DNA from: Escherichia coli | Lineage (GTDB): Bacteria; Pseudomonadota; Gammaproteobacteria; Enterobacterales; Enterobacteriaceae | Direction: 5' to 3' (one strand) | Assembly (NCBI RefSeq): GCF_003334765.1 | Contig: NZ_QOWT01000005.1 | Length of the DNA: 64,000 nucleotides | Shown here: positions 58,352 through 58,393 of the stretch, in pieces | Numbering within the stretch: position 1 is the stretch's first letter | Layout of the letters: each line of letters opens with the position of its first letter | Notes under the pieces: model-generated | What the model was told of the DNA's origin: nothing | Seen by the model: the letters and a program-made list of their open reading frames with translations, nothing else | Database searches by the model: none | Translations under genes and position numbers: made by a program

Positions 58352-58369
58352 GGGGCGATCCCTCGCCCC
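58352..58369. repeat. GC-rich palindrome GGGGCGA-tccc-TCGCCCC between convergent yghO and glcC
   Basis: Perfect 7-bp inverted repeat read directly. Confidence 0.5.
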
Positions 58370-58371
58370 TC

Positions 58372-58393
58372 GGGGAAAGGGTTAGGGTGAGGG
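58372..58393 (+). other. G-quadruplex-type motif GGGG-aaa-GGG-tta-GGG-tga-GGG
   Basis: Four G-runs of at least 3 separated by 3-nt loops, read directly. Confidence 0.5.

Follow-up and report, generated by a model that had tools for sequence, protein, structure and literature searches.

Between the convergent genes yghO and glcC of an Escherichia coli contig (NZ_QOWT01000005.1), a GC-rich palindrome stands next to four guanine tracts, which raises the question of whether this locus carries a regulatory device, a member of a repeat family, or a coincidence of short motifs. The window, that is, the whole stretch of DNA analyzed here, comprises 64,000 nucleotides (64 kb). Gene names were confirmed via the RefSeq annotation of identical sequences: yghO is located on the + strand with its stop codon at 58328-58330, and glcC on the - strand with its stop codon at 58406-58408, leaving a spacer of 75 bp. 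Within this spacer, gcgca is followed by GGGGCGA (58352-58358), tccc (58359-58362), TCGCCCC (58363-58369), tc (58370-58371), and the G-run GGGG aaa GGG tta GGG tga GGG (58372-58393, + strand), and the sequence continues from the last G-tract with tgaaaac. The initial annotation had placed a perfect 7-bp hairpin, followed immediately by a G-quadruplex (G4) motif, at 58352-58393 between the two genes, and these coordinates, the palindrome GGGGCGA-tccc-TCGCCCC, and the convergent setting were exactly as read. Two details needed adjustment: hairpin and G-run are both present, but the 2-nt TC at 58370-58371 separates them, and the stem is perfect but extends to 8 bp through the pair A58351-T58370.

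Taken one at a time, the hairpin and the G4 pattern are not beyond chance. The pattern G3+N1-7 matched once in the 64-kb window, at this site, and first-order Markov simulations gave 0.64 matches per 64 kb, with at least one match in 47% of cases. The G4Hunter score of the 22-mer was 2.0, and the 25-nt window starting at 58372 was the top of the whole 64 kb; the reading of the run as a canonical G4 pattern was formally right, and this potential has already been published for the sequences named HPG1 (PMC5100583). Perfect 7-bp stems numbered 66 in the window against 27.6 expected from Markov simulations, and those that were GC-rich (loop of 3-8 nt) numbered 15 against 3.0 expected, an excess of about five times. 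GC-rich 7-bp hairpins were located, among other places, at 846, 11196, 19221, 31267, 39242, 39596, 39877, 52700, 61152, and 61822, and the excess elsewhere in the window probably consists of terminators or REP-type repeats.

To look for relatives, we used an nhmmer profile built from the 23 published K-12 sequences of the TMECO family (Holder et al. 2015, PMC4666352). Of the 36 positions in this model, 1-35 aligned with 58360-58393 (27.3 bits, E = 2.4e-7), and the core of the copy agreed with the profile consensus at 33 of the 35 aligned positions. A 56-bp query (58345-58400) was then compared with 5,426 complete E. coli genomes; 5,409 of these contained related places, 76,496 in all, with a median of 16 per genome; 76,453 places were chromosomal and 43 were on plasmids, and unannotated DNA lay under every place among the matches listed. 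Genome NZ_CP033635.1, which has a 100% identical copy, contained 11 related places. Paralogous copies were covered over 88-100% of the query at 80-86% identity, with the argE-ppc copy reaching 100% coverage at 86% identity. Besides argE-ppc, we inspected the copies at glnH-glnP, flgF-flgG, yhjD-yhjE, ybcF-purK, tauD-hemB, aaeR-tldD, frlR-yhfS, pstB-pstA, yjdP-phnP, and fimH-gntP, and these 11 loci gave the consensus A.G.GC..GG.C.GTCCCCTCGCCCCT..GGGGAGAGGGTTAGGGTGAGGGG. The family is thus dispersed, multi-copy, intergenic, and off mobile elements, and the three-block core CCCTC[G/T]CCC[C/T] - loop - GGGGAGAGGG - TTA - GGGTGAGGGG is present at full length in the window copy, as are four runs of at least 3 G with loops of 1-7 nt (58372-58393). 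Neither the profile nor the sequence search found a second BoxC copy in the 64-kb window, where the yghO-glcC copy stands alone, and the Rfam 15 covariance models gave 0 matches at E ≤ 10 on either strand of 57800-58900.

The feature is therefore non-random because it matches a dispersed repeat family. A purely accidental juxtaposition of the hairpin and the G-runs in GC-rich intergenic sequence, unrelated to any family, would fit the roughly 0.64 G4 motifs expected per 64 kb and the abundance of GC-rich 7-bp stems in the window, but the full-length profile match, the fully covered alignment to the argE-ppc locus, the relatives found genome-wide, and an orthologous copy in another species refute it, and its probability is practically nil. 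The suggestion that the element belongs to a GC-rich intergenic repeat family proved correct, and the family is the one described as BoxC, PIT, TMECO, and HPG1. Judged by its sequence, the motif is one slightly worn, degenerate BoxC copy.

This family, together with its G4, hairpin, and triplex potential, is already known from two papers in NAR. BoxC is a short interspersed repeat of Enterobacteria, known from E. coli since the 1990s. It was described as a 56-bp element with 32 copies (PMC2267715). Holder et al. (2015, NAR 43:10126; PMC4666352) tabulated 23 K-12 copies as TMECO and equated BoxC, PIT, and TMECO, where PIT, the name used by the Maher group, stands for "potential intrastrand triplex". 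Kaplan et al. (2016, NAR 44:9083; PMC5100583) described the same sequences as HPG1, a "G-quadruplex-Hairpin-Duplex switch". According to Holder et al., TMECO elements have no bias in the function of neighboring genes or in their distance from open reading frames, and TMECO loci vary far more between strains than control intergenic sites do, mostly through small intergenic deletions and mutated copies (PMC4666352). Beyond the two NAR papers and one review, we found no later functional work on TMECO, PIT, or HPGQ. In the accessible parts of the BoxC, TMECO, and HPG1 literature, no description of the yghO-glcC copy was found, and neither glcC, yghO, nor the sequence of the copy was found in the accessible portion of the supplementary tables of Holder et al. 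(63 loci).

The complete BoxC-type unit covers about 56 bp (58345-58400, + strand) and reads AAGCGCAGGGGCGAT CCCTCGCCCC TC GGGGAAAGGG TTA GGGTGAGGGT GAAAAC, with the G-rich strand on +. Its 5ʹ flank (58345-58359, +) opens with AAGCGCA, which fits the family, and continues with GGGGCGAT, which differs at four positions from the consensus (CGGACAGT and similar), has one base missing, and complements the C-block. Block 1, the pyrimidine (C-rich) block of the TMECO core (58360-58369, +), is CCCTCGCCCC, identical to the 'type A mm' consensus. Loop 1 (TC, 58370-58371, +) is shortened to 2 nt, compared with 3-4 nt in K-12 copies. The first purine block, block 2 (58372-58381, +), is GGGGAAAGGG with a G-to-A change relative to the consensus GGGGAGAGGG; loop 2 (58382-58384, +) is the TTA that defines 'type A' (HPG1) copies (Holder 2015, PMC4666352); and the second purine block, block 3 (58385-58394, +), is GGGTGAGGGT, in which the last G of the consensus GGGTGAGGGG has become T. 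Written out, CCCTCGCCCC-TC-GGGGAAAGGG-TTA-GGGTGAGGGT here stands against CCCTCGCCCC-TTT-GGGGAGAGGG-TTA-GGGTGAGGGG in the consensus for 'type A, one mismatch'. Blocks 2 and 3 together form the canonical pattern G4 A3 G3 TTA G3 TGA G3 (58372-58393, +), and at the level of sequence the G4-like run is simply the two purine blocks of the BoxC repeat.

With BoxC/PIT/TMECO type A elements, the copy shares the order of C-rich block, loop, purine block, TTA, and second purine block, the AAGCGCA 5ʹ flank, an A-rich 3ʹ tail, a strictly intergenic and dispersed distribution, and strain-variable presence. Unlike them, it has two adjacent mismatches, a 2-nt loop 1, a T as the last base of block 3, and a 5ʹ flank complementary to its own C-block, and it is absent from the set of 23 K-12 copies. 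HPG1 shares with it the pattern of G-tracts and loops with TTA and TGA, the upstream C-rich region, and the intergenic position, with some members likewise between convergent genes, whereas the first loop is AAA in the copy instead of AGA; furthermore, the C-block:G-block hairpin that competes with the G4 is predicted to be weakened in the copy, with a non-competing clamp hairpin in its place.

Around the conserved unit, GAAAAC..GC..CAT after the core is common to some copies. In a search for signs of transposition, namely target-site duplications or terminal inverted repeats, CCTGTT and CCTTGTT were seen to flank the strain-variable segment; since other copies, too, begin at the left with CCTG[T/A]TAA, this flank may well belong to the repeat. 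We also considered one long element explaining the whole 75-bp difference from K-12 and rejected it, as nothing beyond the unit of about 56 bp reached 70% conservation among 13 sequences.

Triplex formation in the family builds on Watson-Crick pairing of blocks 1 and 2 into a stable hairpin that contains one mismatch at most. In the yghO-glcC copy, the G-to-A change in block 2 creates a second, adjacent mismatch against block 1, and the canonical block1:block2 hairpin has a folding energy of -3.5 kcal/mol (z = 0.17), no better than shuffles. This weakness arises because of the two adjacent mismatches and the 2-nt loop 1, and the copy is therefore a degenerate member, of the kind that Holder et al. 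call a 'degenerated TMECO' (PMC4666352).

The hairpin that first drew attention (58351-58370) is a different structure, with an 8-bp perfect stem, AGGGGCGA / TCGCCCCT, and the loop TCCC. It arises from the 5ʹ flank, where GGGGCGA is the exact complement of TCGCCCC in the C-block. Folded as DNA, the 18-mer reached -8.0 kcal/mol (z = -3.6), and when the 61-mer of either strand was folded, the structure of lowest energy was again this hairpin (-10.8 to -10.9 kcal/mol). The diverged flank and the hairpin are missing from all 11 paralogous loci aligned, so the hairpin is specific to this locus; GGGGCG[A/G]T in the flank was found only in the window copy and in the orthologous copy of Escherichia sp. 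E1V33. The palindrome is thus real, but it is a locus-specific pairing of 5ʹ flank and C-block and not the hairpin of the BoxC family.

This arrangement invites the reading of a functional G4/hairpin switch: the clamp would sequester the C-block and free the four G-tracts, and a G4 would then form on the non-template strand of the DNA or in RNA from the yghO 3ʹ untranslated region. Such a G4 would serve as a roadblock or an insulator separating yghO from glcC, or would protect the RNA 3ʹ end. The motif itself is canonical, with three 3-nt loops and the high G4Hunter score given above. G4-aware folding, a prediction based on RNA parameters and a single, simple energy model for the G4, placed a quadruplex at 58372-58393 and gave 'clamp hairpin + G4' as the optimum (-29.9 kcal/mol, compared with -21.9 kcal/mol without the G4); the same optimum was obtained for the E1V33 ortholog and for none of five canonical copies, all of which kept the C-block:G-block hairpin. 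From the literature, the sister motif HPG2 shows ion-dependent (K+) circular dichroism consistent with G4-hairpin switching and forms a duplex with its complement, and 6 of the 16 K-12 HPG1 copies lie between convergent genes (PMC5100583). An oligonucleotide, GGGAAAAGGGTTAGGGTGAGGG ('yjbD'), which is one base different from the run in the window, showed a Tm of 53°C when melted with FRET detection in 100 mM K+ (review, PMC11170735). Against a functional switch, NMR of isolated full-length TMECO oligonucleotides, studied as consensus sequences only, revealed an intrastrand triplex of very high stability instead of a G4, the strand went into a duplex once the complement was added, and in vivo protection from DMS was absent at another TMECO copy (PMC4666352). 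Moreover, the copy is missing from about 96% of the genomes that have both genes, and a natural variant breaks G-tract 1. In that carrier, E. coli Combat11I9, CGGGG is changed to CGAGG, which suggests weak constraint on the G4 motif; the flank of the same copy also shows TTAAG changed to TTTAG. We consider a functional switch unlikely, and what the evidence supports is a degenerate, structure-prone repeat.

As to how the clamp came about, one could imagine that four substitutions and a 1-nt deletion made the 5ʹ flank a perfect complement of the C-block, perhaps through hairpin-templated (quasi-palindrome) mutation, and that a BoxC of the triplex or hairpin type thereby became a module of clamp hairpin and free G4. 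Kept in lineages about 4-6% diverged (E. coli carriers and Escherichia sp. E1V33), such a module might serve as a roadblock or an RNA 3ʹ-end element between the two convergent genes. We mention this conversion as a long shot, highly improbable in its entirety.

The motif had also been taken for a possible structured terminator, and such an element, or a 3ʹ-end stabilizer, could serve yghO, glcC, or both, by an intrinsic or, for glcC, a Rho-dependent route. Like an intrinsic terminator, the locus has a GC-rich stem-loop just 3ʹ of stop codons, 20 nt past that of yghO and 35 nt past that of glcC, and the hairpin is stable on both strands at the 61-mer energies given above. For the Rho-dependent variant, a G-free run of 28 nt with 54% C in the glcC sense (58372-58399, - strand) follows soon after the glcC stop codon and resembles a rut site in its composition. 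Unlike in an intrinsic terminator, however, the stem is followed by TCGGGG on the + strand and by TGCGCTTAAC on the - strand, with no T/U tract on either, and a scan of both strands of 58200-58550 returned 0 terminator-like or promoter-like sites. PIT elements had neither promoter nor terminator activity in an earlier study of the Maher group, as cited by Holder et al. (PMC4666352). The element is also dispensable in K-12 and most other strains, which manage with merely 6 bp between the yghO and glcC stop codons. The terminator proposal thus fails on these counts, and we regard termination or 3ʹ-end stabilization by this copy as very unlikely.

The preferred explanation is that the motif is a degenerate, strain-variable BoxC copy that is structure-prone and has no dedicated regulatory role at yghO-glcC, which we hold to be probable. 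In canonical copies, the purine blocks of single-stranded DNA fold onto the C-block to form a hairpin or an intrastrand triplex, or else form a G-quadruplex. In the yghO-glcC copy, the G-to-A change in block 2 and the 2-nt loop would cripple the canonical hairpin, and the diverged flank GGGGCGA would pair with the C-block instead, producing the look of a hairpin plus a G4. The repeat would then persist or decay roughly neutrally, in association with local indel variation, seen here in strains that have or lack the copy and, with it, in an altered 3ʹ end of glcC. We infer neutrality at this locus; structure-driven replication slippage or repair, proposed by Holder et al. as the cause of the instability (PMC4666352), may lie behind the variation here as well; and the dispensability of the copy, together with the negative results on other copies, points by analogy to an absence of function.

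The polymorphism was examined in the same 5,426 complete E. coli genomes. A 101-bp stretch containing the copy was present in 184 of them, always between yghO and glcC. The flanks were found in 4,546 genomes, of which about 4,360 had both genes and an empty site of one of two types, so that the copy is missing from about 96% of the E. coli genomes with both yghO and glcC. One further allele, of 86% identity in BS-01 (NZ_CP172816.1), contained long G/C homopolymers and was judged to be a basecalling or assembly error and not a real allele. Compared with K-12, the strain-variable segment is 85 bp long (58337-58421), and K-12 has the 10 bp CTAACTCAGG instead. One alignment resolves the difference into a repeat of about 60 bp and a second indel of 16 bp outside the conserved repeat (58405-58420, assigned to the - strand; CTCACATTCCCACCTT on +), whereas a second alignment gives a single 75-bp indel (58337-58411).

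The final four sense codons of glcC (K V G M) and its stop codon (58406-58408) fall within the 16 bp at 58405-58420, and when these 16 bp were removed in silico, glcC read through the repeat with 25 extra residues. The 85-bp segment therefore supplies the stop codon of glcC, and probably its last few codons. Three allele classes could be distinguished by the tail of the encoded protein. The empty, K-12-type allele encodes GlcC ...EMNLS* and was found in roughly 3,100 genomes; the second empty allele, with the tail TCACCCCTGC, encodes GlcC ...EMKQG*, was found in about 1,279 genomes, and has TGA instead of TAA as the yghO stop codon; and the filled allele encodes GlcC ...EMNKVGM* in the 184 carriers. 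The locus is thus a small, concrete illustration of the instability that has been published for the BoxC family.

Filled and empty states both occur within E. coli and also among sister lineages. Such a distribution could stem from a single ancient gain and several losses or from recombination that spread the filled allele. A degenerate pattern from the glcC 3ʹ end led to five species-representative loci, none of them under the title of E. albertii, E. fergusonii, or E. marmotae. In Escherichia sp. E1V33, which shares 96.6% and 94.3% identity with the window in the two flanking genes, an orthologous copy occupies the corresponding position, again with a loop 1 of 2 nt, and the GlcC tail, EMNKEGM*, is of a like kind. 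Its clamp, GGGGCGGT, is nearly the same, retaining 6 bp and a G-T pair, and its blocks 2 and 3 (GGGGAGAGGG and GGGTGAGGGGG) fit the consensus; the window copy has therefore decayed further than its ortholog. What is left in E. whittamii (Sa2BVA5) is a remnant whose 5ʹ flank, CGGATAGT, still resembles the consensus and whose C-block is degenerate; the TTA loop and block 3 are gone, and glcC there stops one codon past ...EM (EMK*). Filled alleles thus extend to lineages that differ from the window by 3.4-6.1% in the flanking genes (E1V33, and E. whittamii as a remnant); the copy has therefore persisted for a long time, and this persistence could reflect some benefit. The retained clamp of E1V33 and the four G3 tracts, all intact in at least 173 carriers, likewise count against a lack of function.

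Empty sites were found in Escherichia sp. MOD1-EC7003 and in "E. coli" SCPM-O-B-8794. The latter (NZ_JAATUR010000001.1), labeled E. coli, diverges from the window by 5.0% in glcC and 7.6% in yghO; its yghO divergence exceeds that of the named sister lineages, yet at the junction it has exactly the tail of the roughly 1,279 ordinary E. coli genomes. The remaining locus is a low-coverage contig of 233 bp (NZ_VLXZ01000430.1) of an Alkalicoccobacillus porphyridii assembly with E. coli glcC 3ʹ-end sequence, which is probably contamination.

REP elements, for which gyrase, IHF, and Pol I are binding proteins, have an mRNA-stabilizing role and a proposed transposase, RAYT/TnpA-REP; we know of no such partner for BoxC. 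REP/BIME and ERIC elements resemble the yghO-glcC copy in being short, GC-rich, structure-forming, intergenic, multi-copy, and strain-variable, but their sequences are unrelated. The striking 'palindrome + G4' pattern amounts to a known repeat, mainly a clean negative, and what is specific to this copy is minor: its clamp hairpin, the part that the variable segment plays at the 3ʹ end of glcC, and a filled allele shared by several Escherichia lineages. As a natural variant with the competing hairpin disabled, its sequence offers a possible test oligonucleotide for triplex-versus-G4 competition. A further small observation, of which we found no mention in the accessible text of PMC4666352 or PMC5100583, concerns the paralogous copies, whose conserved 5ʹ flank carries a GGAC-N-GTCC quasi-palindrome abutting the C-block.
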